From assembly GCA_963761255.1 (NCBI GenBank), contig CAVXGH010000001.1, forward strand, positions 345,675 through 409,674: a DNA stretch of 64,000 nucleotides, given 5' to 3'. The DNA is from an uncultured delta proteobacterium. Its GTDB lineage: Bacteria; Desulfobacterota; Binatia; Binatales; Binataceae. The position numbers and the translations under genes were made by a program. Below the pieces are notes generated by a model that was not told where the DNA came from, did no database searches, and worked only from the letters and a program-made list of their open reading frames with translations. Below, one piece after another: positions 6,667 to 31,072 of the stretch. Each line of letters opens with the position of its first letter. The first letter of the stretch is position 1.

Positions 6667-7098
6667 ATGCCGCGTCCAGTATGTCCTCCTATTGCCGCCG
6701 ACATGATCACCGAAATTGGTGATCGAATCGTACTCATCGAGCGCAAGAATTTTCCGGAAGGATGGGCGATACCCGGCGGTTTCGTCGATTTCGGCGAAAC
6801 CGTCGAGCACGCCGCCATCCGCGAGGCGAAGGAAGAAATCTCCGTCGATGTGGAGATTCGTGCGCTGCTGGGAATTTATTCGCGGCCCGATCGCGATCCG
6901 CGCGGGCAGACGATCACCGCGGTTTACATTGGGCGCGCGAAAGAGACGCCGGTCGCGGCGGATGACGCGAAAAATTGTGCGCTATTCGATCCGCGCATGC
7001 CGCCGACGCCGTTAGCTTTCGACCATGCGGAAGTATTGCGCGACTATGTGCACTTCCTTGAAACCGGCGCACATCCGGCGCCGTGGAAAGGCAAATAG
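6667..7098 (+). CDS. NUDIX hydrolase
   Basis: Nudix box GGFVDFGETVEHAAIREAKEEISV (Gx5Ex7REUxEExGU). Confidence 0.85.
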   Translation: MPRPVCPPIAADMITEIGDRIVLIERKNFPEGWAIPGGFVDFGETVEHAAIREAKEEISVDVEIRALLGIYSRPDRDPRGQTITAVYIGRAKETPVAADDAKNCALFDPRMPPTPLAFDHAEVLRDYVHFLETGAHPAPWKGK

Positions 7099-7575: not shown

Positions 7576-8592
7576 TCAATTCTTTGCCTTATCCACCAAC
7601 CGGTCGCTGGCCAGCCATGGCATGAACGAGCGCAACTTCTTTCCCACTTCCTCGACCGGGTGATGCTCGCCTTCCTTGCGCATCTCGCGGAAGTGCGGAA
7701 GCCCCGCGCGATACTCATTGATCCATTCGTTGGCGAATTTGCCCGATTGGATATCCGCGAGGATCTGCTTCATGGCCTTGCGCGCATCTTCGCTGACGAC
7801 TTTCTTGCCGCGCGTCATATCGCCGTATTCGGCGGTGTTGCTGATCGAGTAGCGCATGTTGGAAATGCCGCCCTCGTAAATCAGATCCACGATCAGCTTC
7901 ACTTCGTGCACGCACTCGAAATACGCCATCTCGGGCGCGTATCCCGCTTCGACCAGCGTCTCGAAACCGGCGCGAATCAATTCGGTCAACCCGCCGCATA
8001 GCACCGACTGCTCGCCGAAGAGATCGGTTTCGGTTTCTTCCTTGAAGGTGGTTTCGATGATCGCCGCACGCGCTCCGCCGATCGCCGCGCCGTACGCGAG
8101 GCCGATTTTGGTGGTGTCGCCCGAGGGGTCCTGCTGCACCGCGAGAAGGCAGGGAACGCCGCGTCCCTTCGTATATTCGGAGCGCACCAGATGGCCGGGT
8201 CCCTTGGGCGCGATCATGAACACATTGACGTCCTTGGGCGGTTTGATGAATCCGAAATGGATGTTGAAGCCGTGGCCGAAGGCGAGGTACTTGCCGGGCT
8301 TGAGCGCGGGTGCAATTTCCTTTTCGTAAATTTCGCCGCCCTGCTCGTCGGGCACTAGCATCATGATGATCTCGGCTTCGGTGGCCGCCTCGGTCGTGTC
8401 GAGCACCTTGAGGCCGTTTTTCTGCGCCTTGTCGATGCTCGCGCTGCCCTTGCGCAGACCGACGCGCACATCCATGCCGCTGTCGCGCAAGTTGAGCGCA
8501 TGCGCGTGTCCCTGGCTTCCATAGCCGATGATCGCGATCTTCTTGGGACGAAGAAGGCTCAAGTCAGCGTCGCGATCGTAATAGACTTTCAC
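7576..8592 (-). CDS. ilvC: Ketol-acid reductoisomerase
   Basis: [39 protein letters not shown]...; class I KARI length (338 aa). Confidence 0.95.
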
Positions 8593-10181: not shown

Positions 10182-11646
10182 TGAAAATGACGAACGCCAT
10201 CAGCGCCACGAGCAGCAGCAATCCCACCTGAAGCGCCATCTCGCGCGTCCGCAGCTGCAGCGGCTTGCCGCGCAGTCCCTCGAATGCGAAAAACAGCAGA
10301 TGCCCGCCATCGAGCAGCGGCACCGGCAACAGGTTCAGGATGCCGAGTTCGAGGCTGAGCATGACCATGAACATCAGAACGGCGGAGAGGCCCTCATGCG
10401 CCTCCTTGCCGGCCATTTGCGCGATCATGATGGGGCCGCCCAGCGCCTGGCGCACCGGTGTCGAGCCGTTGATGATCTGCCAGATGCCGATGACGAGGGT
10501 TCCCGCCATATCTACCGTTTGGGCAACGCCTTTCTCGACCGCGTCGATGGGGCCGTAGCGCTCGGTCTCTTCATCGCCACGCGGCATCACACCAATGATC
10601 CAGGTAGGCACCTTGGTGCCGTACACGGTTGGCTCATCTTCGCGTTTGGGCGTGATGGTGAGGTCTTCGCGCACCATCGATGAGCCGGTGCCGCGCTCGA
10701 TACCCAACTTGAGTGGAGTGCCGGTTCCGCCTTTGACCTCGGCGGAAAAATCATTCCAGAAATGAATCGGGTTTCCATTGACCGAAACGATACGATCGCC
10801 CGGGAGCAATCCTGCCGCATGCGCCGGCAGTCCTTCTTTGGCCTGACCGACGACGGGAAGGAGCATCGGCACGCCCCACAAGAAGACAATCGTCATCAGG
10901 ATGGGCGCGAAAATGATGTTCGAGAGCGGCCCCGCGAGAACAATCGCGAAGCGCTTCCACAGGCGCTGGGTCGGGAACGAGCGTTTCGTGAAAGATTGGA
11001 GCAGCGCCGGCGTCGGGTGCTCGCCGAGGTAAGTTTGTGCGTCGGCCACCGAATCACGCCCATCGATCTCGTGCATCACGATGGCTTCTTCGGGCTTCAG
11101 CGCGCGTCCGATAACTTCGGAAGCATCGGGGGATTCGACGATCTCCGGCAACGGCGCCGCAACCAGCGCCTGGACCGCGGTCGAGCCTCGTACTTCGGCC
11201 ACTAGCTGCGCAGGTTTGCGAGGGTCGCGAGAGCCGAGGCGTTTGGCGAGCGCGAGGATCTTTTCGTCGGGATCCTTCGAGGGCAGGCTCCAGCGATAAT
11301 TCTCCGCCGCCTCGAGGACATCGAGCGCGAGCTCATGAACATAATTCTGCAGCTCGTCGGAGCGCGGCTCTTCGCCGACTTCCTCGCCGAGCATGCGGAC
11401 ATAGCCGCCAAATGGCGTCAGCCCGATCGAATAGTCAGTCTCGCCACGGCGTACGCCCCAAACCCGGGGCGGGTAACCGATCGAGAATCTGATGACGCGG
11501 ACTCCGAGTCGCTTCGCCATCGCGAAGTGTCCGGCCTCATGTACGATGATTAGAACTGCGAGAATGATTGCGGCGGCGGCAATTGAAGTCAGCAAAACGC
11601 GCTCCTCCGAAATGTCCCTGACAGGACGCCCCCCGAGACAAAACAA
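10153..11646 (-). CDS. rseP: RIP zinc metalloprotease RseP (site-2 protease) with PDZ domain
   Basis: HEAGHF HExxH motif, membrane helices, PDZ region (GLLPGDRIVSVNGNPI), C-terminal LDGG motif. Confidence 0.9.
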   Translation of the reverse strand: MFCLGGRPVRDISEERVLLTSIAAAAIILAVLIIVHEAGHFAMAKRLGVRVIRFSIGYPPRVWGVRRGETDYSIGLTPFGGYVRMLGEEVGEEPRSDELQNYVHELALDVLEAAENYRWSLPSKDPDEKILALAKRLGSRDPRKPAQLVAEVRGSTAVQALVAAPLPEIVESPDASEVIGRALKPEEAIVMHEIDGRDSVADAQTYLGEHPTPALLQSFTKRSFPTQRLWKRFAIVLAGPLSNIIFAPILMTIVFLWGVPMLLPVVGQAKEGLPAHAAGLLPGDRIVSVNGNPIHFWNDFSAEVKGGTGTPLKLGIERGTGSSMVREDLTITPKREDEPTVYGTKVPTWIIGVMPRGDEETERYGPIDAVEKGVAQTVDMAGTLVIGIWQIINGSTPVRQALGGPIMIAQMAGKEAHEGLSAVLMFMVMLSLELGILNLLPVPLLDGGHLLFFAFEGLRGKPLQLRTREMALQVGLLLLVALMAFVIFNDISHLIQS

Positions 11647-11668
11647 TGCGACCGCACGCGCCGTCGCA

Positions 11669-12460
11669 TCACCGAGAGTAATAGTAAGTTAAAACCGCCG
11701 CAAAGACCAGTGAACAAGTTCGATCGAGCAATCCGCCATGCCCGGGGAAAATCCACCCTGAATCCTTGACTCCCGCAACACGTTTGAACGCCGAGTTAGC
11801 AAGGTCTCCGATGATGGCGAGGATCGCCACCATCGCGGCGAAGACGATCATCGTTCCGATGCTCCAACTAGCCACCAGCCATGGCCGCAGGATGAGGCCG
11901 CCCGCGATCGATGCGATGATACCGCCGATCGCGCCCTCGATGGTCTTGCCGGGGCTCACCTTGAAGGCGAGCTTATGCCGTCCGATCGCGCGTCCGACGA
12001 AGTAGGCGCCGGTATCGGCGAGGATCACGAGCAGCAGCATCAGCACCAGCAACTCGATGCCGTTGGGTCCGTTTCGCACTGCCGCAAAAAACGGGAACAG
12101 TACGAAAACTGAACCGTAGCCTAGAAGCGCTAGTTTAAGATCTTTGGAAATACTTTCCGGGCCGAGAGCCGCAACTCGCCCTACCAGAATGGTCATCAAG
12201 ACAATGACGATGGCCGGAAGGATCCATCCGCGATTGTGATCCACCAGATATCCAAGCAGGAGCAGCGCTGCGAACGCGAATAAGCTCCAATCGGATTCCT
12301 GTCCGCTAGCCCCATCGCGCATCATTTCGCGGACCTCATAGAGGCCCCACATGCCAAACGCGCCGACCATTAGCGTGAAGGCCCAATCGGAAAGAAGGAA
12401 GATCGCCACGAGGAGAGTAGGGAGCGCGACCGCCGCGGTCAGAAGCCTAGTTCTGAGCAC
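11669..12460 (-). CDS. cdsA: Phosphatidate cytidylyltransferase
   Basis: Polytopic membrane protein with CTP_transf_1 signature (KRxxGVKDSGxxxPGHGGxLDR). Confidence 0.9.
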   Translation of the reverse strand: MLRTRLLTAAVALPTLLVAIFLLSDWAFTLMVGAFGMWGLYEVREMMRDGASGQESDWSLFAFAALLLLGYLVDHNRGWILPAIVIVLMTILVGRVAALGPESISKDLKLALLGYGSVFVLFPFFAAVRNGPNGIELLVLMLLLVILADTGAYFVGRAIGRHKLAFKVSPGKTIEGAIGGIIASIAGGLILRPWLVASWSIGTMIVFAAMVAILAIIGDLANSAFKRVAGVKDSGWIFPGHGGLLDRTCSLVFAAVLTYYYSR

Positions 12461-13232
12461 GCAGTCGGTCGTCGCCGTCGGCGGGAACTCCGCCGAACCT
12501 GCGCTCGCGCGCCTGATACGCCGACAGCGCGGTCAAAAATTCGCGCTCGCGGAAATCAGGCCATAACGTCTCAGTGAAATAGAGCTCGGTGTAGGCGAGC
12601 TGGAACAGGAAGAAGTTCGACACCCGCTGCTCGCCCGAGGTGCGGATGAAGAGGTCCGGATCAGGCATCGTGCCGGTCGCCAGCGAGCGCGAGATGGTCG
12701 CCTCGTCGATGTCCGCGGGCTTCAGCGTGCCGGCCGCGACCGCCTCGGCGATCTTGCGCACGGCAGAGGTGATATCCTGCCGCCCGCTGTAGGGCAGCGC
12801 GAGGCCGAGTGTCATGCCGTCGTTCTTCGCGGTCATCTCGACTGTCTGCTCCAGCGCGTGACGCAGCGGCGGCGAGAGCCGATCGCTTTGGCCCAGCGCG
12901 AGCACCTTGATGCCGCGTTTCATCAGCCGCTTGCCCTCGGTGATGAGGTAGCGATGAAACAGGCGCATCAGAAAATTTACTTCGGTGGAAGGCCGTCCCC
13001 AGTTCTCGTGCGAGAAGGCGAACAGGCTCAGATACGGGATGCCGAGTTCGCGCGCGGTTTCCACCACCGCGCGCACGGAGTCCTTGCCGCGGCGATGGCC
13101 TTCGTTGCGGCTGAGGCCGCGCCGCTGCGCCCATCGTCCATTGCCGTCCATCACGATAGCGACGTGGCGCGGGAGCACTTCGCGATCGAGAGATAGATTT
13201 GGAAATTCGTCGGTTGGTAGTGAAATCGCCAC
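12447..13232 (-). CDS. uppS: Undecaprenyl diphosphate synthase (cis-prenyltransferase)
   Basis: HVAIVMDGNGRWA...; FSHENWGRP; RFGG C-terminal motif. Confidence 0.93.
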   Translation of the reverse strand: MAISLPTDEFPNLSLDREVLPRHVAIVMDGNGRWAQRRGLSRNEGHRRGKDSVRAVVETARELGIPYLSLFAFSHENWGRPSTEVNFLMRLFHRYLITEGKRLMKRGIKVLALGQSDRLSPPLRHALEQTVEMTAKNDGMTLGLALPYSGRQDITSAVRKIAEAVAAGTLKPADIDEATISRSLATGTMPDPDLFIRTSGEQRVSNFFLFQLAYTELYFTETLWPDFREREFLTALSAYQARERRFGGVPADGDDRLRAQN

Positions 13233-13262
13233 TTCCAGATGTGACCTGACTCGATCCCCTCG

Positions 13263-13820
13263 TCAGACCTCCATTATCTCCGCTTCCTTCGTCGTCAGGA
13301 CCTTGTCGATCTTCTCGATGAATTCGGTGGTAAACTGCTGCACCTTGGCCTCGGCGGCGTGCAGGTCATCTTCGGAAATTTTCTTGTCCTTGTGCAGGTC
13401 CTTGAGCATGTCGTTGGCGTCGCGGCGATGGTTGCGCACGCCGACGCGATGGTCTTCGGCCATTTTCTTGACGTGCTTGGCGAGTTCCTTGCGCCGCTCC
13501 TGGGTCAACTCGGGAATCGGGATGCGAATGATCTTGCCGTCATTTTGCGGCGTCAGTCCGAGGTCGGAACTCTGGATCGCTTTTTCGATTTCATGCAGCG
13601 CGGTCTTGTCATAGGGCGTGATGACAATGAGCCGCGGCTCGGGCGCGGCCAGCGATGCCACCTGGCGAATCGGGGTCTTGGCTCCGTAGTAATTAACCTG
13701 CAGACCCTCGACCAGACCCGTCGAGGCGCGGCCGGTGCGAACCTTGGTCAGTTCGTGACGGAATGCCTCGACGGTCTTTTCCATCTCCGCGCGCGCTAAA
13801 TCGATTACCTCGTCCTGCAT
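13263..13820 (-). CDS. frr: Ribosome recycling factor
   Basis: 185 aa; VRTGRASTGLVEGLQVNYYG... Confidence 0.95.
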   Translation of the reverse strand: MQDEVIDLARAEMEKTVEAFRHELTKVRTGRASTGLVEGLQVNYYGAKTPIRQVASLAAPEPRLIVITPYDKTALHEIEKAIQSSDLGLTPQNDGKIIRIPIPELTQERRKELAKHVKKMAEDHRVGVRNHRRDANDMLKDLHKDKKISEDDLHAAEAKVQQFTTEFIEKIDKVLTTKEAEIMEV

Positions 13821-19714: not shown

Positions 19715-21577
19715 ATGAAAATACCTGCTTCACGGATCTTCGCTGGACGCGCCGGCCTGTTCGGCATCTTCATCGCCATCGCGCTGACCGCCTCGACTTC
19801 GCGCGCAGCCGACACTCCCGATGCGTCATCGCCGGCGCGCGGGCGCATCGTCATCCTGATGGTATGGGATGGGCTGCGGCCTGACTTCGTCACGAGGCGC
19901 GACACGCCGAATCTGTATGACCTCGGGCGCGAGGGCACCCGCTTCGACCGCCATCATTCGATGTATCCGACGCTGACTATGGTGAATGCGGCGGCGCTCG
20001 CGACCGGCGCCGCGCCGGGTGTGAATGGCATCGTCGGTAATGTGCTGTATCTCGCGCCGCTGCTCGGCGACAAAGCCTCCGTCAACCCGAAGCTCGCCAA
20101 GCCGGTAATGCTCGAAAGCACGCCGCTGCTGGCCGACCTCGATAGCGACGGCGAGTTTGCCGGGCATCTGCTTGGCCTTGATTCGGTGGCACAGCAACTT
20201 GAACGCGAGGGCGGCTACGTCGCGATTGCGGGCAAGGGAGGGCCCGCATTTCTCTTTGATGATCGAGTGGAAACCATCAAGGACGGCCGCGATTCGCTCG
20301 GCAATCCGCACAAGGACTACCTTTTCGCGACCGATGATCTCACCGAGCCCCCGCAAGCCGCGGTCGAGAAGGCTCCCGCCGGAAGCCATGAGGGCGTGGC
20401 CGATTCCGCACGCGATGTGTACTTCACCCACATCGTTACCGAGGACGCCATCCCCGCGGCGAAGCGCGCCTCCGATGCGGGGCGTCCCTCGCTCATCGTG
20501 CTATGGCAGCACAACCCCGACCTGACGCAGCATATCGCCGGTCTGGGCACGCTGCCGGCGCTGGAGGCACTGAGCGGCGCCGACATCAACCTCGGCAGGG
20601 TGCGCGCGGCGCTCGACAGCAACGGTATCGCGGACCGCACCGACGTCATCGTGGTATCGGATCATGGCTTCGCGACGGTGCGGATGACCATCGATCTGAA
20701 TGCGCTGCTGGTTGGCGCGGGCCTCAAGAAGGACCTCGACAGCGACGACGTGGTGGTCGCGCGCAACGGCGGCAGCGACCTCATTTATCTATCGAAGACT
20801 GCGTTCCCGACCGAGAGTGCGCGCCACGATGAGCTTCAGAAGATCGTCAATTTCGCCGAGGCCCAGGAATGGTGCGGGCCGATTTTTTCGCGCCAGACCG
20901 CGCCGATGCCGGTCGAAGGGAAGCATCGCCGGCGGCCGCCGCCCGAGGCATCCTTCATGGGATGGATCGATGGCACCTTCGCGCAGGAGGCTATCGGCAT
21001 CTTCAATCCGTCGCGCTCGCCCGACCTGACGCTTTCGTTTCGTGAAATCTCCGAGCAGGACAACCGGCAACTCACCGGCCCGGACGCGCCCGCATTCGCG
21101 ATCGCGGCCAAAGGGCAAACCTCGGTGAAAAACAATTCGAAGACCCTGGTGCATCCTGTGCGCGGCATCATGTATGCCGATGCGGGCGCTTCCTTCACCA
21201 CTGGAATGGGGATGCATGGCGCGGCCGGCGCCGCTGAGATCCACAACGTGTGCGCGGCCATCGGACCCGACTTCAAGCGGGGCTTCGTCGATGCGAATCC
21301 GACCGCCAACATCGATGTCGCCCCGACGATTACTCACATCCTGCAGATGGCGCCGAATGTCGGCCCCGGCGGCGCGCATGCGACCGGACGCATCCTGACC
21401 GAGGCGTTTCCGGGTGAGCGGCAATGGGTCGGGACCGCGAAATCCCTCGCGCCGAGCACTAAGCTGACGCTGCAAGGGGTCGAGGTGACTAATACCCTGC
21501 GCATCACGCGGTTGGGCGAGCATGACTACCTCGACAATGCGACCGAGGCGCGCAATCCGCTGGGCAGCAGCCCCTAA
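19715..21577 (+). CDS. Secreted alkaline-phosphatase-superfamily enzyme (type I phosphodiesterase / nucleotide pyrophosphatase-like)
   Basis: Signal peptide; metal-binding core IVILMVWDGLRPDF...MYPTLTMVN...VIVVSDHGF typical of the NPP/AP superfamily. Confidence 0.75.
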   Translation: MKIPASRIFAGRAGLFGIFIAIALTASTSRAADTPDASSPARGRIVILMVWDGLRPDFVTRRDTPNLYDLGREGTRFDRHHSMYPTLTMVNAAALATGAAPGVNGIVGNVLYLAPLLGDKASVNPKLAKPVMLESTPLLADLDSDGEFAGHLLGLDSVAQQLEREGGYVAIAGKGGPAFLFDDRVETIKDGRDSLGNPHKDYLFATDDLTEPPQAAVEKAPAGSHEGVADSARDVYFTHIVTEDAIPAAKRASDAGRPSLIVLWQHNPDLTQHIAGLGTLPALEALSGADINLGRVRAALDSNGIADRTDVIVVSDHGFATVRMTIDLNALLVGAGLKKDLDSDDVVVARNGGSDLIYLSKTAFPTESARHDELQKIVNFAEAQEWCGPIFSRQTAPMPVEGKHRRRPPPEASFMGWIDGTFAQEAIGIFNPSRSPDLTLSFREISEQDNRQLTGPDAPAFAIAAKGQTSVKNNSKTLVHPVRGIMYADAGASFTTGMGMHGAAGAAEIHNVCAAIGPDFKRGFVDANPTANIDVAPTITHILQMAPNVGPGGAHATGRILTEAFPGERQWVGTAKSLAPSTKLTLQGVEVTNTLRITRLGEHDYLDNATEARNPLGSSP

Positions 21578-21674
21578 CGACCCATAGTTTACCAAATGTG
21601 CTATAGTTAAGGACGGTCGCCGCTCCGCTCAGGGGCGGCGGCGCCGTTTATGGGAACAACGATTTTTCAACATC

Positions 21675-22080
21675 GAAAAATGCGAAAACAAACCCACTTC
21701 TCGGCAACGCCGAGAAGTGGCCCTGAGGCCGCCGAAGGGCCTCCGCGAAGCGATTTGAGGATTCGGCAACGCCGAGAAGTGGCCCTGAGGCCGCCGAAGG
21801 GCCTCGAAGGGCAAGATGTCGAGCATCAGAAGCGCAAAAACAAAGCCACTTCGGGATTGCCGCCGACTGCGGAAATCGCAAAAACAAACCCACCGCGAGC
21901 ATCGCGAGCGGTGGTCCTGAGCGCTTCGCGAAGGACCTCGAAGGGCAGGATGCCGAGTGTCAGAAGCGCAAAAACAAAGCCACTTCGGGATTGCCACCGA
22001 CTGCGGAAATCGCAAAAACAAACCCACTTCGCGGTTCAGGAGAACAAACATCGAAAACCCGTGCCAGTATTGGGTTTTCT
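21675..22080. repeat. Non-coding block of degenerate tandem and interspersed repeats with embedded palindromic hairpin modules
   Basis: Five copies of gcaaaaacaaa[g/c]ccac; a 41-bp module occurring twice (CTCGGCaacGCCGAG and GGCCCT-N11-AGGGCC palindromes); a ~66-bp module occurring twice ~135 bp apart; terminal hairpin AAAACCC-N11-GGGTTTT plus TTTTCT at ~22054-22080; ORFs are open in all frames, which fits repeat DNA rather than coding sequence. Confidence 0.7.
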
Positions 22081-22212
22081 GAATCTCTTGGCTCATGGCG
22101 CTATGGCAAACTTCGGCCTGTGACCCAGCTATCGGGCGGACTATCGCTTGGCGCGCAGCGAGGTTCGATGCTAGTACCTTAGGCTTGGAGACGAGGCCAG
22201 GAGGCCATCATC

Positions 22213-23004
22213 ATGAGTGCCAAAGGATGGGTCAAAACCCCGGAACAGATTCGCAAGATCCAGGAACGCCTCAACCAGCCCGCGTTCCTGCAGGGCAAGA
22301 TGATGAGCGTCAGCTTCCTGACCCGGCCCGAAATCGTGCGCGAGGTCCTGCCGCCTCCGCTCGAGCCGGGCAGCCAGCCGCTGGTCACCGTGAGCGTATG
22401 CACCTTCGGCTCCTCGAACTGCGTCGGTGAGTTCGCGGGAGGGGTGGTTGATATGTCGGCGAAGTACAACGGCATCGAGGCCAACCACTGCCTCGCGATG
22501 CCGATGTCGACTGACGTGGCGATCATCTTCGGCCGCGAGCTCTTCGGCGAGCCCAAAAAGCAGGGCCGCGTGCAGCTCAAGAGCGATGGCGATGTGGTGC
22601 GCGGCACCGTCGAGCGTTTCGGAATTCCATACATCCAGCTCGAAGGACGCTTCACTGAAAATGTTCCGATCACCGGGCCGACCTTCAGCGATCGCTTCCA
22701 CTTCAAGTTTATGCACGCCGCCGACGGCAACGGGCTCGAGTTCGATCCCATCATCGTACACGCGCACTTCCGCAACGAGTTCAAAACCATCAAGCGCGGG
22801 GCCGGCAAGGTGACCCTCAAGGCGACCCCGCACGATCCATTGCCGGAGATCGAAATGGTCGAGCTGATGGGGGCGACCTATAGCGAGGGCGACATCTTCG
22901 CGGAAGCGAAGGCGATTGGAACGGTGGCGGCGGCTAAGTTTTTACCCTATTCGTTCCAGAACATCGACGATTACAGCGGGGAGATTCCGCGAAACAATTT
23001 GTAG
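22213..23004 (+). CDS. Acetoacetate decarboxylase (ADC)-family protein
   Basis: AIIFGRELFGEPKKQG aligns with the ADC active-site region AIAVGRELSAYPKKLG (catalytic Lys); similar length; RBS aggagg. Confidence 0.65.
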   Translation: MSAKGWVKTPEQIRKIQERLNQPAFLQGKMMSVSFLTRPEIVREVLPPPLEPGSQPLVTVSVCTFGSSNCVGEFAGGVVDMSAKYNGIEANHCLAMPMSTDVAIIFGRELFGEPKKQGRVQLKSDGDVVRGTVERFGIPYIQLEGRFTENVPITGPTFSDRFHFKFMHAADGNGLEFDPIIVHAHFRNEFKTIKRGAGKVTLKATPHDPLPEIEMVELMGATYSEGDIFAEAKAIGTVAAAKFLPYSFQNIDDYSGEIPRNNL

Positions 23005-23177
23005 GAACCGGGCTCGTCATCCACACCGGAGGTGTCACAATTTCACACACATTCGGGAGGGTTAGGCGCGCCGTGATTTTGCCGCTCTCGCCTGATCCAT
23101 AGCAGTGGAGGGTGTTTCCGCACGCTGCCCGACGCAGCCGTTTGCTGTAAACGCTTTCCTTTTGCGCCTGTTTTTGC

Positions 23178-25382
23178 GTGTCTCCGAGTCCCGCGGAAGG
23201 GCTCATAAGCTCCGGTCGGTTTGGCTGTTCGTGGGCGCGGAAATTGCTGCCTACCTCCGCGAATATGAAACATCGGGGGCAGCCCGCGCGATCGCAACCG
23301 TCCCGGCATCCGCCGCGGGTAGCCGACATTGGCACGTTTGCCGTCTCGACTGCCGCACCTCAACTCGCGCTGGCTTCGCCTCACTACAACCTCGGGAATA
23401 AGCTTCTCGCGAAGGGCAAACTCGCCGAAGCCGAAAGAGCATACCGGCAGGCGGTCGCACTCGCTCCGTCCGATGCGCAAGCGTGGTCGAACCTCGGCCT
23501 CACGGTTTGGAAGCTCGATCGCCTCGCCGAGGCCGAAGCGTGTCTGAAGCGCGCCCTCGCCTTGAAGCCCAACCTGGCCGAGGCCCGCAACAATCTTGGC
23601 GGGGTGCTGGAAGCGCTCGGGCGATTTGAGGATGCGGGCGATCAGTACCGCATCGCCATTGATAGCGATCCCAAACAAGCGCAGCCCCACTGCAACCTGG
23701 GCGCGATTCTGCATCGGCTCGGCAAATTCGAAGAAGCCAAGGTCGAGTACGCGCGCGCGTTGACCCTTAAGCCGGACTTCGCGGAGGCATGGTCAAATCT
23801 CGGCGCGGCGTTCCTCGCGCGCTCAAAATTCACCGATGCCGAGGCCTGTCTGTCGCGCGCCAGGGAATTCGCTCCCAACCATCGCCAGGTGCTCAGCAAT
23901 CTCGCGGACGTCCAGCGCATCGAGGGCAAGTTCGCCGAGGCAATCGAGACCTATCATCGCGCCTTGAAAGTTGATCGGGAGAACGTTCCCCAGAAGGTGA
24001 AGCTCGCGCTCGCGCAGGAAGTAATCCTCACCTCGCGCGAGAGCGCGATGAAGCGTCGCGCCGAAGTGATGGCGTCGCTCAGCGAGCTGATCGATCGGCG
24101 CCTCAAGCTCGATGACCCGCAAAGCGAAGTGGGGATGACGAATTTCTACTTCGCTTACCAGGACGTCAATGACATCGAGTTGCAGTCGTTGACCGCGAAG
24201 TTTTATTTGAGCGCGTGTCCGAAGCTCGGGTGGATTGCTCCACATTGTGCGGCGCCTTCTGCATCATCAAGCGGCCGTCTGCGGGTAGGTTTCGTTTCGA
24301 CCAGTCTGTTTCAGCACACGATAGGCAAGTTCTACCACGGCATCATCCAGAAGCTCTCGCGCGAGCGGTTCGAAGTCGTGGTGATTCGGCCGCCGCAGGA
24401 CGCCGATGAGATTGGCGATGCGATCGGGCGCGACGCCGATCGGAATGTCGAGATCCCCTACGATTTGTATCGCGCGCGCGAGATCATCGCCGCCGAGCGC
24501 CCCGACGTTCTTTTCTATCCCGATATCGGGATGACCCCGCTCACCTATTTCCTCGCGTTCGCGCGGCTCGCGCCGGTCCAATGCGTAAGCTGGGGGCATC
24601 CGGTGACGACCGGGGTTCCGGCCATCGACTATTTCATTTCGGCCACCAGCATCGAGCCTGCCGACGCGCAAACACATTATTCGGAGCGGTTGATTCTGCT
24701 TGACCGGCTGCCGAGCTACTACTGGCGGCCACATCACCATGCCAATGCTTTCACGCGCGCCGAGATGGGATTCGCCGCCGACGCGAAGCTCTACGTATGT
24801 CCCCAGAGTCTGTTCAAGCTGCATCCCGATTTCGACCTCGTGCTCGCCACACTATTGCGACGGGATCCGAAGGCGCGGCTGCTGTTGCTGTCGGGTGTTC
24901 ATAAGCATTGGGATCGCTTGCTCGCCGCACGTATCGCCAAAACTTTCCCGGATATCGTCGAACGCGTCATCTTCGTGCCGCGCATCCCGCAAACGGAATT
25001 CTTCCGCCTCCTGATGATGGCTGACGTGATCCTTGATCCGCCGTTTTTCGGCGGCGGCAATACCAGCTACGAAGCCTTCGCGATGGGTCTGCCGATCGTG
25101 ACCTGGCCGGGAGCGTTCATGCGCGGACGCGTGACCGAAGGCTGCTACCGGCAGATGGGCTTCACCGAACTGGTGGCCGACAGCCTCGATTCATACGTCG
25201 AGATCGCGCTGCGCCTCGCTAATGACAATGAGTGGCGCGAGCGCGTGAAGCGCGAAATCGCAACTCGCTCGGCGGTGCTTTACGAGGACGCACGCGTGAT
25301 TACCGAGCTGGAAGACTTTTTCCGCGCCGCCCTCGACGCGCATCGACGGGGAGGCCGCATCACGCAATGGAGACCATTATGA
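23178..25382 (+). CDS. TPR-repeat protein fused to a GT41 (O-GlcNAc transferase / SPINDLY-like) glycosyltransferase domain; an alternative ATG start is at 23265
   Basis: At least 7 TPR units (AWSNLG... repeats) followed by the OGT C-terminal catalytic region (GFVSTSLFQHTIGKFY...LYVCPQSLFKLHPDFD...FGGGNTSYEAFAMGLPIVTWPG). Confidence 0.8.
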   Translation: MSPSPAEGLISSGRFGCSWARKLLPTSANMKHRGQPARSQPSRHPPRVADIGTFAVSTAAPQLALASPHYNLGNKLLAKGKLAEAERAYRQAVALAPSDAQAWSNLGLTVWKLDRLAEAEACLKRALALKPNLAEARNNLGGVLEALGRFEDAGDQYRIAIDSDPKQAQPHCNLGAILHRLGKFEEAKVEYARALTLKPDFAEAWSNLGAAFLARSKFTDAEACLSRAREFAPNHRQVLSNLADVQRIEGKFAEAIETYHRALKVDRENVPQKVKLALAQEVILTSRESAMKRRAEVMASLSELIDRRLKLDDPQSEVGMTNFYFAYQDVNDIELQSLTAKFYLSACPKLGWIAPHCAAPSASSSGRLRVGFVSTSLFQHTIGKFYHGIIQKLSRERFEVVVIRPPQDADEIGDAIGRDADRNVEIPYDLYRAREIIAAERPDVLFYPDIGMTPLTYFLAFARLAPVQCVSWGHPVTTGVPAIDYFISATSIEPADAQTHYSERLILLDRLPSYYWRPHHHANAFTRAEMGFAADAKLYVCPQSLFKLHPDFDLVLATLLRRDPKARLLLLSGVHKHWDRLLAARIAKTFPDIVERVIFVPRIPQTEFFRLLMMADVILDPPFFGGGNTSYEAFAMGLPIVTWPGAFMRGRVTEGCYRQMGFTELVADSLDSYVEIALRLANDNEWRERVKREIATRSAVLYEDARVITELEDFFRAALDAHRRGGRITQWRPL

Positions 25383-26698
25383 ATGAGCGCATATCGCGCC
25401 ACGATATTTGTCAGTCGTTGTGTCCGGCCTGCGGATTTCAAATCGCCGCGCCATTTTTCCATGGCGGAGCGCAGCCACTGGCGACTCTCGCCTGGCCCGC
25501 GAGCGAGGAGGCCGCGCGTTCGATGCCGCGACTGCCGGTGGACTTCGTGCGCTGCGTGGAATGTGGGCACGTCTACAATCCCGCCTTCGACTACGCGCAA
25601 GTTCCATACAGCGACAAGCCGAACCTGATGTTCAATCGCGGCGCGTTGTGGTCGGAATTTCTCAAAGACACGATGCGGCAGATGCTGCATCAGCTACCCG
25701 AACATCCGGTGATCGTCGAGATTGGTCATGGCGACGGCAGCCTGCTCGGGGCGCTTGCCGAAGCGCGGCCCGGGGGCCATTTCGTCGGATTCGATCCGCA
25801 TGGCGCGACGCAAGGCGAAGGCGACCTCGAGCTGCGTGCCGCGCTGTTCGATCCCGAAGAACATCTCGCGGAACTTGCGCCCGATCTGGTGGTAAGCCGC
25901 CACGTCCTCGAGCATCTGAACAGCCCGCTCGCGTTTCTACAACGAATCGCATTCGCCGCCGCGCGCCTCGGTCGCGAACAGCTCGCATACTTCGAGGTTC
26001 CCTGCGTCGATCGCGCGCTGGCCACCGGGCGAACCGTCGATTTTTACTACGAGCACAATTCCCAATTCAGCAGCCAGTCTTTTCGTAAGATGCTCTCGCG
26101 ATGTGGCGCCACCATCAATTGCGTCGGTCATGGCTACGGCGGCGAAGTCATCTACGGGTACGTGACTCTCGGTGGTCAGCAGCGGCGCTTGAAGATTGCC
26201 GATGAGGCGCGCGAATTCCTTGATGCCGCGGCGGCAGGTTTGGAGCGCATCCCCGCCCAGCTCGACGAGCTGGCGAAGTCGGGCGCGCGCATCGCGCTTT
26301 GGGGCGGCACCGGCAAATCCGCGGCCTTCATCAATCGCTACGGACTCGACCGGTTGCGATTCCCGATTGTGGTGGATTCAGATTTTGCCAAGGTGGGAAC
26401 CTTCGTTCCGGGCACCGGCCAGGAAATTCGCTCCCGCGACTGGCTCAAGGAAAATCCAGGTGCGGTGGTTATCATTCCGCCGCAATGGCGCGCCCTCGAC
26501 ATCGTGCTCGAAATGGAACGCGCGGGCATCTCATTCAAACAGGTGTTGATCGAGCACGAAGGCGCGCTGATCGACTATTTCACTGATGCGCATCCTTACG
26601 ACCTCGGCAAATATCGGAGCCTTGCCCCCAATCCGATGCGCGATTCAAAGCGCCCTTACCCGCACGGCGATACCTCGAAGAACGCTCACCTGATGTAG
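25379..26698 (+). CDS. Class I SAM-dependent methyltransferase with N-terminal zinc-ribbon and C-methyltransferase-type C-terminal domain (TylCIII-like architecture)
   Basis: CPACG...CVECGH zinc ribbon; SAM motif VIVEIGHGDGSLL; C-terminal domain; start ATG overlaps the upstream stop (ATGA), so translational coupling is likely. Confidence 0.7.
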   Translation: MNERISRHDICQSLCPACGFQIAAPFFHGGAQPLATLAWPASEEAARSMPRLPVDFVRCVECGHVYNPAFDYAQVPYSDKPNLMFNRGALWSEFLKDTMRQMLHQLPEHPVIVEIGHGDGSLLGALAEARPGGHFVGFDPHGATQGEGDLELRAALFDPEEHLAELAPDLVVSRHVLEHLNSPLAFLQRIAFAAARLGREQLAYFEVPCVDRALATGRTVDFYYEHNSQFSSQSFRKMLSRCGATINCVGHGYGGEVIYGYVTLGGQQRRLKIADEAREFLDAAAAGLERIPAQLDELAKSGARIALWGGTGKSAAFINRYGLDRLRFPIVVDSDFAKVGTFVPGTGQEIRSRDWLKENPGAVVIIPPQWRALDIVLEMERAGISFKQVLIEHEGALIDYFTDAHPYDLGKYRSLAPNPMRDSKRPYPHGDTSKNAHLM

Positions 26699-26709
26699 CA
26701 GGTGCCAGC

Positions 26710-28488
26710 TCAAACCGCGGCGCGAAGCCCGCGCGAATGCCGGTGGCTGCCGTTTTGGAAGCTGCGCAGGATGTCGGTTTTGGTCACGATACCTGCCAGG
26801 CGGCCGTTATCGTCGATGACCAGCAACATCTGGTCGCCGTCCTCGCGCGTCAGCAAGCGCAAGGCCTCGGAGAGTTCGGAATCGGCGGCCACGCGGGTGG
26901 TGTCGCGGCTTGCGAGATCGCCGACCTTCGCCGTGCTCCACTCTGCGGGCTCTGTTTTCGGCAGCACCCCGGTTGCGATGGTGCCGATGACTTGGTCGGC
27001 ATCGTAAACCGGGAACATCGTGTGGCGATGGTGCGCGGCGATACCGGCGCGAAAATCTCTTATCGAGGTGTCAGCCTGCACGCTCACCACCTGGGTTTGC
27101 ATCACCTCGCGAACCTTGACCCCGCTCAACTCCGCGATTTTCACCATCTCGTGCAGGTGCTGATCGCCGGAGACCGAGGCCTCGCCTGAAACCGCATAAG
27201 CGACTGCGGCGCCAATCAGGCTCGGAATCAGGTACGAATGACCGCCGGTGGTCTCGGCGACGAACACCACCGCGGTGAGCGGAGTCTTGTAGCCTCCCGA
27301 GATGAAGGCCGCCATCCCGACCGCCGCATACAAGTCCACCGCATTGGTGTGTACCACCGTCTGCCCGAATGCGTTCCCGATACATCCGCCGGCCAGCAGC
27401 AATGGAACAAACATCGCGCTCACGCCGCCGGTGCCGAGCGAGCAAATGGTTGCGGCGAGTTTGAGCGCGGCGAAAACCAGCAGCATATGCGACGGATGCG
27501 AGTGCGCGAGGATCTCGCGTACCGCTTCGTAATTGGGTCCGATCGGAATCAGCGAGTTATCGTAGAGGTTGACGAACAGCAATCCGCATAGCGCGGTGCC
27601 GAGCCCGCCGATGATGAGCTTCGCAACGTGCGGGAGGTGGAGGGTTACAAAAAAGCGTCTGACTCTACGAAAGGTAATGTCAAAGACGATCGCGAGGAGC
27701 CCGATGATCGCGCCGAGCAGCGCCGACCACAGCAGGTCACTTTCACGGAAGCTGATGCTGCCGGCAAAGCCGAACAGCGGCTCCGAACCGGCGAATGCTA
27801 CCAGCGTTGCATAGGAAACCACCGATGCGATGAGCGACGGCAGCAGCGCCTCATGCGCGAGGTCGTCTTTGTAGGGCATCTCGAGTGCGAATACGAGTCC
27901 GGTCAGCGGGGCGCGAAACACCGCCGCCATTCCGGCCGCCGCTCCGCTAATCAGCATGATGCGGCGATCGCGCGGCTCCAGTCCGAATCGGCGCAGCCGG
28001 GTCCATAGCCAGGAGCCGATCGCGCCGCCGCCATAGATGCTTGGCCCTTCGAGGGCGGCGCTGCCGCCGGATCCGACCGTGGTCACCGCGGCGAGAATTT
28101 TCCACCAAAACGAGCGCAGGTCGATGTCACCTTGATGCTCATGGTAGGAACGAATTATCTCTTCGGTGGAATGCTCATCGGGATCCGGCGCGCGGAATTG
28201 CATGATCAGGCCGGTGAGCGTGAAACCGATCAGCAATCCGATCAGGATGGCCCAATGATGTAACAAGTAGTAGGGTAGGACGCGGACCCAAATCGTATCG
28301 AGGATCAGGGTTGCGATCCCGGTTATGAACAAACCGGTGATGACGCCGATGATCGGCGCGACCAGCAGCCACTTCTGGATATCGCGCGAATAGGTCGCGG
28401 TCAGGTCTTCATTTATAAGCGCGGTGTAACGCCGGATGGACGGATGGTTGAGCAGTTCGGACTGGAACAGGCGATCCAGGAAAGCCAA
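26710..28488 (-). CDS. ClC family chloride channel / H+-Cl- antiporter with C-terminal CBS pair
   Basis: Multi-TM protein with ClC selectivity motifs (GSGGSAALEGP, GxFxP-like) and two CBS domains at the C-terminus. Confidence 0.85.
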   Translation of the reverse strand: MAFLDRLFQSELLNHPSIRRYTALINEDLTATYSRDIQKWLLVAPIIGVITGLFITGIATLILDTIWVRVLPYYLLHHWAILIGLLIGFTLTGLIMQFRAPDPDEHSTEEIIRSYHEHQGDIDLRSFWWKILAAVTTVGSGGSAALEGPSIYGGGAIGSWLWTRLRRFGLEPRDRRIMLISGAAAGMAAVFRAPLTGLVFALEMPYKDDLAHEALLPSLIASVVSYATLVAFAGSEPLFGFAGSISFRESDLLWSALLGAIIGLLAIVFDITFRRVRRFFVTLHLPHVAKLIIGGLGTALCGLLFVNLYDNSLIPIGPNYEAVREILAHSHPSHMLLVFAALKLAATICSLGTGGVSAMFVPLLLAGGCIGNAFGQTVVHTNAVDLYAAVGMAAFISGGYKTPLTAVVFVAETTGGHSYLIPSLIGAAVAYAVSGEASVSGDQHLHEMVKIAELSGVKVREVMQTQVVSVQADTSIRDFRAGIAAHHRHTMFPVYDADQVIGTIATGVLPKTEPAEWSTAKVGDLASRDTTRVAADSELSEALRLLTREDGDQMLLVIDDNGRLAGIVTKTDILRSFQNGSHRHSRGLRAAV

Positions 28489-28888: not shown

Positions 28889-29368
28889 ATGAAAGAAGAA
28901 ATCCAGCGTAGCAGGAAGCTCGACGTTCCCGGCGATCCTATCGGAATTCGTATTCTCCTCGTCGAGGATAACGCCGATCATGCCTTCGTGGCGCTGACGG
29001 TCGCGCGCCAGGTGCTGGGCGAATGCATCGAGCTGATCCACGCGCAGAACGCCAACGAGGCGGTCGATCTCATCGGCCACTTCACCGCGGAAGATCGCCC
29101 GGATCTTTTTATGGTTGATCTGCGCCTGCCCGACAATGGCGGTTTCTCGGTGATCTCCGCGGTGAAAGGCAGCACCGCCTGCGAGAACGTGCCACTCTTC
29201 GTCATCACCACTTCCGGTTATGATCGCGACATTGCCGAATGCTACGAACTTGGCGCATCCGCGGTGCTGTGCAAGCCGCTTTCGCGCGCCACCTTCCGCG
29301 ACGAGATCGCGCGAGTCGGATTGATTCCAGGATCGGCGGCCAAACCGGCCTACCTCATCCGCCAGTAA
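28889..29368 (+). CDS. Stand-alone response regulator receiver (CheY-like) protein
   Basis: IRILLVEDNADHAF...MVDLRLPDNGGFSV...LFVITTSG; no output domain. Confidence 0.8.
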   Translation: MKEEIQRSRKLDVPGDPIGIRILLVEDNADHAFVALTVARQVLGECIELIHAQNANEAVDLIGHFTAEDRPDLFMVDLRLPDNGGFSVISAVKGSTACENVPLFVITTSGYDRDIAECYELGASAVLCKPLSRATFRDEIARVGLIPGSAAKPAYLIRQ

Positions 29369-30824: not shown

Positions 30825-31052
30825 ATGAAAAAGAACGTACAAAAGTTTTCGGTCATCGTAGAGCGGGAAGACGGTTGGTACATCGCCGAATGCCCCGCGT
30901 TGCCCGGCTGCGTGTCTCAGGGCCGTACCTTGAAAGAGGCACTCAAGAACATTCGCGAAGCCATTGAGGGCAGTCTCGAAACCCGAACGGTCCACAAGAT
31001 TGGAACTGGTCCCAAAGTATTCGAGATCGAAGTTCGGCCCGGCATTGAATGA
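30825..31052 (+). CDS. hicB: HicB-family antitoxin (UPF0150)
   Basis: FSVIVEREDGWYIAECPALPGCVSQGRTLKEALKNIREAIEG, 75 aa. Confidence 0.8.
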   Translation: MKKNVQKFSVIVEREDGWYIAECPALPGCVSQGRTLKEALKNIREAIEGSLETRTVHKIGTGPKVFEIEVRPGIE

Positions 31053-31072
31053 GCCGCCTGCCCGTTTGCTGA

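Follow-up and report, generated by a model that had tools for sequence, protein, structure and literature searches.

In this study, we analysed a 64-kb stretch of Binataceae DNA of about 60% GC, the whole of which is called the window below, and focused on two adjoining forward-strand genes, one for a glycosyltransferase with tetratricopeptide repeats (TPR) and a GT41 catalytic domain (hereafter GT41) and one for a zinc-ribbon methyltransferase (MT) of the S-adenosylmethionine (SAM) dependent class. We showed that the GT41-MT pair is a genuine, widely conserved and functionally coupled cassette. From the genes surrounding the orthologous pairs, flagellin or the filament of the flagellum emerges as the candidate target, and we tentatively propose, with a likelihood a little short of one half, that this is a cassette of the FlmG or flagellin-OGT type, in which GT41 glycosylates flagellin and MT tailors the sugar.

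For the conservation of the pair, 78 loci were taken around MT homologues, of which 68 were informative, having at least 1.1 kb of upstream sequence. A GT41 catalytic-domain gene was located directly upstream of MT on the same strand in 37 of these 68 loci, while GT41 and MT formed one open reading frame (ORF) in 11 more, and the two are thus adjacent or fused in 48 of the 68 loci, from about ten major lineages. GT41 was found elsewhere within 10 kb of MT in 10 loci (one of them, L072, truly adjacent), and in the remaining 10 no GT41 was found, several of them owing to contig ends. Identity among the MTs of about ten major lineages is 50-63%, the family being represented in Binataceae, Alpha-, Beta-, Gamma- and Deltaproteobacteria as well as in Planctomycetota, Vampirovibrionales, Acidobacteriota, Armatimonadota, Chloroflexota, Rokubacteria and Nitrospinota. 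Fusions in the order TPR-GT41-MT were found in L030 (1413 aa), P0364 and P0366 (Pfam-confirmed), the reverse order MT-TPR-GT41 was found in P0361 (also Pfam-confirmed), and long fused proteins make up six of the top ten representatives of the 50%-identity clusters. Independent fusions in both domain orders are strong evidence that both enzymes act in one pathway. The coupling of the two genes claimed in the initial annotation was therefore upheld, as was the conservation of the gene pair as neighbours in relatives.

No universal third partner gene was revealed by all-vs-all clustering of 890 ORFs or by a Pfam census of 144 neighbouring proteins (145 families). The phosphodiesterase (PDE) and CLC genes flanking the pair were rejected as partners, their synteny being confined to Binataceae. 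The initial annotation had also counted the upstream gene of the acetoacetate decarboxylase (ADC) family as a third member, and a three-gene pathway of ADC, GT41 and MT for small-molecule or protein modification would fit the shared strand, the gap of 260 nt and the intact ADC gene in the window and its own assemblies. However, ADC is restricted to the window's own sub-lineage: it is a C-terminal remnant in L001, though the MT of L001 is 95% identical to that of the window, L008 has it broken into three pieces, and L002, L003, L005 and all of the non-Binataceae loci examined lack it. In addition, a conserved motif located between ADC and GT41 (described below) argues for separate control of the pair. 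Since it is not co-conserved with GT41-MT, ADC was rejected as part of the module and is an incidental neighbour, which makes the three-gene pathway hardly credible.

The GT41 protein contains about six TPRs and a Glyco_transf_41 domain (PF13844, 95.2 bits against a cut-off of 25) according to Pfam, and its closest solved relatives are human OGT (hOGT), SPY, TtOGT and XcOGT. In the AlphaFold2 (AF2) model (pLDDT 90), a disordered N-terminus (aa 1-29) leads into a TPR superhelix (aa 30-249), and linker helices connect this to a GT-B catalytic domain (about aa 339-694) that lacks the intervening domain of the metazoan enzymes; neither an N-terminal signal nor a transmembrane segment was seen in this model, the N-terminus being only disordered. 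The top 50 Foldseek matches were all GT41 structures (SPY, human and fly OGT, TtOGT and XcOGT; E about 1e-32), and NCBIfam gave sub-threshold TPR and NGT matches only, with a partial NGTferase match of 77 bits against an equivalog cut-off of 1000. Lys518 does not vary among 30 homologues or in a second alignment of 12 MT-partnered or fused GT41s, which includes the distant, 29%-identical ones of Azospirillum, and His351 is conserved to at least 90% in both. Lys518 corresponds to hOGT Lys842, the essential phosphate-binding lysine, and His351 to hOGT His558. With the catalytic Lys and His kept, which were the active-site residues singled out in the initial annotation, the enzyme looks active. 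The hOGT residues K898, H901, R904, H920, T921, T922 and D925 align to Q, F, L, G, N, T and E, respectively, and T922 alone of these seven UDP-GlcNAc contact residues is retained, as read from the sequence alignment only. Because the uridine/GlcNAc contacts of hOGT are replaced, the protein was filed as GT41 and not as an O-GlcNAc transferase, and its donor is probably something other than UDP-GlcNAc. The earlier description as "OGT-like" holds for the fold, the family and the two catalytic residues, and is doubtful in its strict sense.

The MT was assigned by Pfam to Methyltransf_23 (PF13489, 50.8 bits) and Methyltransf_14 (PF08484, 38.9 bits), both over the cut-off. Among the profiles named in the initial annotation, Glyco_transf_41, TPR, ADC and Methyltransf_23/14 were matched, while Methyltransf_13, the zinc-binding domain model, did not match MT. 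No matching model for MT was found in NCBIfam, and the PADLOC defence models gave a generic TPR match at 1.5e-10 only and nothing for MT or ADC. The best solved relatives by PDB sequence matches are MtmC, KijD1 and TcaB9, and with the AF2 model (pLDDT 88) the same three were the only full-length fold matches (Foldseek, E 1e-17 to 1e-21), every other match being restricted to the Rossmann domain. Among 32 homologues, the Cys4 ribbon (CxxC...CxxC; C15/C18/C59/C62), the cores of the SAM motif VEIGHGDG and of WGGTGKSAAF (aa 308-317), the residues D139 and H179, and Y223, E225 and H226 of DFYYEH (catalytic YYEH, aa 223-226) are invariant. The ribbon aligns to the Cys pairs of MtmC, and the invariants align with the CH/AH histidine, the YxEH catalytic motif and the C-terminal GxGxxK motif of MtmC and KijD1. 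H179, Y223, E225 and H226 are presumably the equivalents of TcaB9 H181, Y222, E224 and H225, and mutants at these four TcaB9 positions appear among the PDB entries matched; the C-terminal WGGTGK/GxGxxK motif we take to be the nucleotide-binding site. By these sequence features, MT is assigned to the TcaB9/TylC3-type architecture of nucleoside diphosphate (NDP)-sugar C-methyltransferases with the catalytic residues kept, and the earlier reading of a Cys4 ribbon, a class I SAM domain and a C-methyltransferase C-terminal domain is supported by Pfam, the invariant Cys residues and Foldseek. Searching plasmids with MT by tblastn returned only paralogues of 25-30% identity, e.g. on Sinorhizobium megaplasmids and Leisingera plasmids.

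Other arrangements of these domains were also seen. At L011 (9953-15860, on the Desulfonema magnum chromosome), the order is inverted, with MT, a TPR-GT41 gene and then a second, canonical TPR-GT41 gene, and this locus is a natural test case for a non-flagellin acceptor. In the representative library, P0422 and P0426, with 26-28% identity, consist of two MT units fused in tandem (about 815 aa), and each half has Methyltransf_23 and Methyltransf_14. P0447 is an MT relative fused to a GDP-mannose-dehydratase-like fragment, and P0427 is fused to an HNH domain.

Flagellar genes near MT recur in at least six major lineages. The most telling context is that of L046, a Binataceae metagenome-assembled genome (MAG) whose MT and GT41 catalytic region are 78% and 74% identical to those of the window, respectively: the order there is flgG-flgA-flgH-flgI-flgJ-flgK-flgL, GT41 and MT, followed on the opposite strand by cheY-hpt, cheR and cheB. 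In Azospirillum sp. ST 5-10, fliE, flgB/C and fliI are followed by two TPR-GT41 genes and MT, and past MT the opposite strand carries DUF1217, flbT, flaF and the gene of a 593-aa flagellin. In Gimesia-type Planctomycetes, the gene of a 602-aa flagellin is located directly 5' of the fused GT41-MT gene, and a sulfotransferase-like gene, a PhyH-type dioxygenase gene and fliD are found 3' of it; other Planctomycetes encode flagellins of 477-1063 aa within 7 kb of the pair. Homologues of flagellin, FlgK/H/I/G, FlaF/FlbT or FliD were also found near MT in Nitrospinota (L049), Vampirovibrionales (L059, L066), a gammaproteobacterium (L065) and Alphaproteobacteria (L028, L056, L072). In a seed-based census, flagellar or chemotaxis markers were present within 10 kb in 25 of the 78 loci; when only the 47 loci spanning 12 kb or more are counted, 20 have them. 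By our estimate, flagellar clusters occupy about 1-2% of a genome, and a random 20-kb segment would touch one only a few percent of the time. Closer to the window, L003 (contig_15114, 4,344,026 bp) has the same PDE-GT41-MT-CLC synteny. On this contig, some 2.7 Mb away from the pair, a FlgI homologue (P0293) is encoded within a complete operon, flgE-fliL-fliPQR-flhBA-sigma-flgFGAHI-flgM-flgK-flgL, which occupies 92-113 kb. Flagellar genes are thus present in at least one Binataceae genome of the window type, where the cassette has moved away from them. In the genome of the window, the cassette would likewise sit apart from the flagellar operons.

The order in L030 (4965-16820; also in L032-L037, L040 and L044) is flagellin (602 aa), fused TPR-GT41-MT (about 1400 aa), a sulfotransferase-like gene, a PhyH-type 2-oxoglutarate dioxygenase gene, an unknown gene and FliD (905 aa). 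This planctomycete locus suggests that the same glycan is tailored further, by sulfation or hydroxylation. Giant flagellins (about 1060 aa) with Flagellin_N, Flagellin_IN and Flagellin_C domains were found in L053 (2755-5946) and L068 (2575-5751), from Pirellulales and Planctomycetales MAGs, within 7 kb of GT41-MT.

Several known systems resemble the pair in part. The TPR domain of FlmG binds flagellin and its GT-B domain sets the donor (PMC7591256; bioRxiv 10.1101/2022.03.25.485807), glycosylation of FliC in Dickeya dadantii depends on the "OGT" Dda3937_03424, whose gene lies between fliA and fliC (PMC6637903), and in the enterobacterial flagellin glycosylation islands nearly all GT41s have a fused AdoMet methyltransferase domain (PMC4875605). 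The likeness to FlmG of Caulobacter crescentus and Brevundimonas lies in the architecture (N-terminal TPR and C-terminal GT-B in a soluble protein); FlmG is cytoplasmic and is encoded with flagellar genes. Unlike the window pair, FlmG transfers CMP-activated pseudaminic or legionaminic acid, needs a nonulosonic-acid pathway and has no dedicated MT partner; nonulosonic-acid genes were not seen near the MT loci in the Pfam census of 144 neighbouring proteins. Encoding among flagellar genes, a trait of the FlmG class, is not found for the window pair, which lies outside a flagellar locus, but it is found in L046 and at least five other major lineages. The GT41s of the enterobacterial islands ("SPINDLY-family OGT") are encoded next to fliC and are nearly all fused with an MT domain (PMC4875605), which is typed as generic cd02440 only. 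In contrast to the window cassette, which is spread over about ten major lineages and often stands alone, these islands also encode sugar-biosynthesis genes (aminotransferases and others) and occur in one bacterial family only, between fliC and fliA.

OGT and SPINDLY (human OGT, Arabidopsis SPY, TtOGT and XcOGT) share with GT41 the TPR superhelix, the GT-B domain and the Lys842/His558 equivalents, whereas the identity is about 20-23% and the hOGT uridine/GlcNAc contacts are replaced in the window GT41; we know of no obligate MT partner for OGT or SPY. TcaB9, KijD1 and MtmC (TylC3 type) share with MT the Cys4 ribbon, the class I SAM domain, the Methyltransf_14 C-terminal domain and the catalytic equivalents, but the identity is about 20% and the window MT is outside an antibiotic deoxysugar cluster. 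The co-encoded 4,6-dehydratase and deoxysugar tailoring genes of that type were not found in the window or in most loci, where MT has no adjacent dehydratase, aminotransferase or ketoreductase and is instead partnered or fused with a protein glycosyltransferase. HMW1C/ApNGT and Y. pestis HmwC have the GT41 catalytic domain (hence the partial NGTferase match), but they have neither TPRs nor an MT partner and act on adhesins or many cytoplasmic proteins. No description of the GT41-MT pair was found in the literature on flagellin C-methyltransferases or GT41 gene-neighbourhood surveys, the literature on Binatota flagella was uninformative, and the database names of the MT family members are generic. 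For the TcaB9-like MT family paired or fused with TPR-GT41 across about ten lineages, we found no published description. The earlier term "undescribed module" was thus too broad, since GT41 flagellin glycosyltransferases, GT41-MT fusions and FlmG have been published (PMC4875605, PMC6637903, PMC7591256), and it still applies to this MT family and pair.

From the observed architectures, catalytic residues, pairing and fusions, and flagellar context, we infer which protein accepts the sugar, which sugar is donated, and whether methylation precedes transfer. The TPR arm of GT41 would capture the acceptor in the cytoplasm before export, the likeliest acceptor being flagellin or another filament or hook-associated protein, and the GT-B domain would move a sugar from a nucleotide sugar to Ser/Thr; flagellin capture and Ser/Thr glycosylation are proposed by analogy with FlmG, the Dickeya OGT and the enterobacterial GT41-MT fusions. 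MT would most likely C-methylate a nucleotide-activated keto-sugar donor made by housekeeping dehydratases, and GT41 would thereby install a methyl-branched sugar. Action of MT on the nucleotide-sugar donor is favoured because the complete apparatus of an NDP-sugar C-methyltransferase is kept, because MT is much more conserved than its GT41 partners, which fits a small invariant substrate, because MT sometimes occurs without an adjacent GT41, and because a dehydratase/UXS-like short-chain dehydrogenase/reductase (SDR) gene follows MT in L027 and L028 and is near it in L064. This SDR, like an NDP-sugar 4,6-dehydratase or UDP-4-keto-pentose synthase, is 0-7 nt 3' of MT in L027 (1575-2516) and L028 (7292-8233); in L064 (Bilophila, 11197-13703), it is about 1.5 kb 3' of MT with a B12-radical-SAM methyltransferase-like gene between. 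That the product is a C-methyl-branched or C-methylated sugar on flagellin or another protein, with MT perhaps also reducing the NDP-4-keto sugar like MtmC, is possible but rather doubtful.

A number of observations weigh against flagellin as the acceptor. The 64-kb window contains no flagellar or chemotaxis gene, nor do the 10-kb surroundings in the six syntenic relatives closest to it, none were found near the pair in L001-L008, and about two thirds of the loci had no flagellar neighbour in the 10-kb census. Desulfonema magnum, a gliding bacterium reported to be non-flagellated, has MT and its two TPR-GT41 genes in a non-flagellar context (L011), so that flagellin may not be the sole acceptor. 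All of this would fit a mobile cassette with flagellar use as one of several, its acceptor here being a pilin, an adhesin, another surface or secreted protein, or a non-protein. Several Betaproteobacteria loci in non-flagellar contexts, the Tad-pilus and VWA genes near a few loci and a cyanobacterial OGT homologue that modifies pilin (PMC9306852) are in line with such an acceptor. We nevertheless regard it as quite unlikely: no alternative context is recurrent across lineages (145 Pfam families among 144 neighbours) while flagellar genes are, the same-family orthologue L046 is at the end of flgKL, and L003, with window-type synteny, is genetically flagellated. A general regulatory transferase of the O-GlcNAc type with many cytoplasmic substrates, the role of MT being unrelated, would be consistent with the GT41 fold with TPRs and the kept catalytic Lys and His, and multi-target bacterial OGTs have been reported in Yersinia pestis (HmwC) and Thermobaculum (PMC11329713, PMC4683255). 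It leaves the obligate MT pairing and fusion unexplained, it conflicts with the replacement of hOGT K898, H901, R904, H920 and T921 by Q, F, L, G and N, and no O-GlcNAcase-like family was prominent among the neighbouring proteins sampled; this explanation is very improbable.

The order of methylation and transfer is weighed against points of its own. The pair has no co-conserved 4,6-dehydratase or ketoreductase (the SDR occurs in three loci only), so the keto-sugar donor must come from elsewhere, and the fate of the 4-keto group is unexplained by methylation of the donor; bifunctional MtmC is a speculative precedent. The equivalence of the active-site residues depends on a sequence alignment at about 20% identity, and Y77 as the equivalent of TcaB9 Y76 is ambiguous, two alignments differing. 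Sequential action on a held substrate would explain the fusions just as well. On the reversed order, GT41 would attach an ordinary sugar and MT would then methylate the protein-linked sugar (O- or C-) or a nearby flagellin residue, with its Glu-His dyad serving as base. TPR-GT41-MT fusions in both orders suit catalytic domains acting in turn on a TPR-held substrate, the missing co-conserved keto-sugar-forming or ketoreductase gene is no obstacle, and the flagellin glycans known so far commonly contain methylated sugars (PMC3927599, PMC4875605). We consider the reversed order unlikely, since the three-domain architecture of NDP-sugar C-methyltransferases is preserved in full in MT, with the invariant WGGTGK, and since the conservation of MT (50-63%) far exceeds that of flagellins or of the GT41 partners, which in some cases are only 25-30% identical to the window GT41. 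In about 10 loci, moreover, MT occurs with no GT41 next to it.

GT41 ("OGT") homologues abound in bacteria, and most of them have no assigned substrate. Under the proposed flagellin cassette, a large cross-lineage GT41 subgroup would gain flagellin as a candidate acceptor, an enzyme as its obligate partner and, as a candidate chemistry, the transfer of a methylated and possibly C-branched sugar. Where these genes are labelled "protein O-GlcNAc transferase", the label is probably mistaken about the donor sugar. If a C-branched sugar were indeed placed on the protein, it would to our knowledge be the first branched-chain sugar in protein glycosylation, and a minimal, horizontally mobile module of two genes would make a branched-sugar glycoprotein across about ten major bacterial lineages. 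Flagellin glycans influence motility, phage and immune recognition, and surface properties. A compact cassette spreading among distant lineages would be a useful glyco-engineering part, and the natural TPR-GT41-MT fusions are ready-made constructs for biochemistry.

The positions of the features are listed in the table below. The three forward-strand ORFs of the initial annotation, for an ADC-family protein, a TPR-GT41 protein and a zinc-ribbon MT, were all confirmed by Pfam and alignment. They are preceded by rho, an RluD-like pseudouridine synthase gene and the type I PDE gene, and followed by a convergent CLC channel gene (Pfam). The GT41 gene had been taken to start at GTG 23178, where the longest ORF opens. 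Its start was moved to ATG 23265, because the 705-aa product is identical to a database entry and this ATG was picked by gene callers in three assemblies, and because conservation 5' of the gene among relatives starts only at about 23231, about 30 nt ahead of the ATG. The reported ATGA overlap was seen in the sequence: the ATG of MT at 25379 overlaps the GT41 TGA (25380-25382), and a Shine-Dalgarno site precedes it, whereas none was visible before the GT41 ATG. The 4-nt overlap is repeated in L001-L005 and L008 (the MT match begins 3 nt before the end of the GT41 frame) and in the called genes of Azospirillum.

Table. Positions of the features at the GT41-MT locus of the window (nt, counted from the first letter of the window).
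Feature	Position	Strand	Evidence or remark
Repeat/hairpin block	21674-22042		Between the PDE and ADC genes, at the edge of the lineage-specific ADC insertion
ADC-family gene	22213..23004	+	Pfam ADC, 3e-39; neighbour only, outside the module
Sigma54-like -24/-12 motif GGGCGCGGAAATTGCT	23233..23248	+	17 nt before the GT41 ATG
TPR-GT41 glycosyltransferase gene, 705 aa	23265..25382	+	Pfam; exact database protein P0001; AF2; Foldseek
TPR superhelix of GT41, about aa 37-250	23373-24014		Pfam; AF2
GT-B catalytic domain of GT41	24279-25346		AF2
His351 codon (FQH), equivalent of human OGT His558	24315..24317	+	HMMER alignment to 3pe3-type chains
Lys518 codon (SLFKLHP), equivalent of human OGT Lys842	24816..24818	+	HMMER alignment
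Shine-Dalgarno GGAG of MT	25369..25372	+	Sequence; inside the GT41 3' end, 6 nt 5' of ATG 25379
TcaB9/MtmC-like three-domain SAM methyltransferase gene (MT), 439 aa	25379..26698	+	Pfam; PDB sequence matches; alignment; AF2; Foldseek
Cys4 ribbon of MT	25421-25564		Alignment, 32 homologues
SAM motif of MT	25715-25738		Alignment, 32 homologues
YYEH of MT	26045-26056		Alignment, 32 homologues
WGGTGKSAAF of MT	26300-26329		Alignment, 32 homologues

The motif GGGCGCGGAAATTGCT has the sigma54 -24/-12 spacing and key bases, in the form GGCNCG-N4-TTGCT. There is a single match to GGCNCGNNNNTTGCW in the window, with 0.8 expected by chance, so the match is not significant alone. The motif was found at about the same distance upstream in L001-L005, L008 and L069 (about 7856-7876 or 6719-6733), and the region upstream of GT41 among window-type Binataceae is poorly conserved except for GGGCGCGGAAATTGCT and its immediate flanks. 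It is a putative conserved control element and may be a promoter or an operator of the cassette; if it is a promoter, a near-leaderless GT41 transcript is implied. Relaxed scans for enrichment of the sigma54 motif in Binataceae flagellar operons were not significant (7 against 4.1 expected), and a sigma70 promoter and terminator scan of 21500-27000 gave nothing above the shuffle expectation.

The repeat/hairpin block described upstream of the genes in the initial annotation is present. It contains a 114-nt unit duplicated 134 nt apart with 89% identity, an exact 43-nt repeat, a 31-nt unit in five copies and terminator-like hairpins on the minus strand. Rfam gave no match at E <= 1 on 21400-23400, which covers the block and the GT41 leader.

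The window sequence matches contig_32982 of ENA ERZ25039548, and L082 is the ENA copy of apparently the same contig. The PDE gene (19715-21577) is a single ORF of 620 aa in the window and three calls in L082 (6593-8313); the ADC gene in L008 and flgL in L046 also appear frameshifted, probably owing to long-read assembly errors. With positions inferred from the precomputed annotation of L082, a receiver-only response-regulator gene adjoins the CLC gene (28889-29368 of the window), and a HicB-like antitoxin gene is located at about 30830-31060, 3' of a class III aminotransferase gene.

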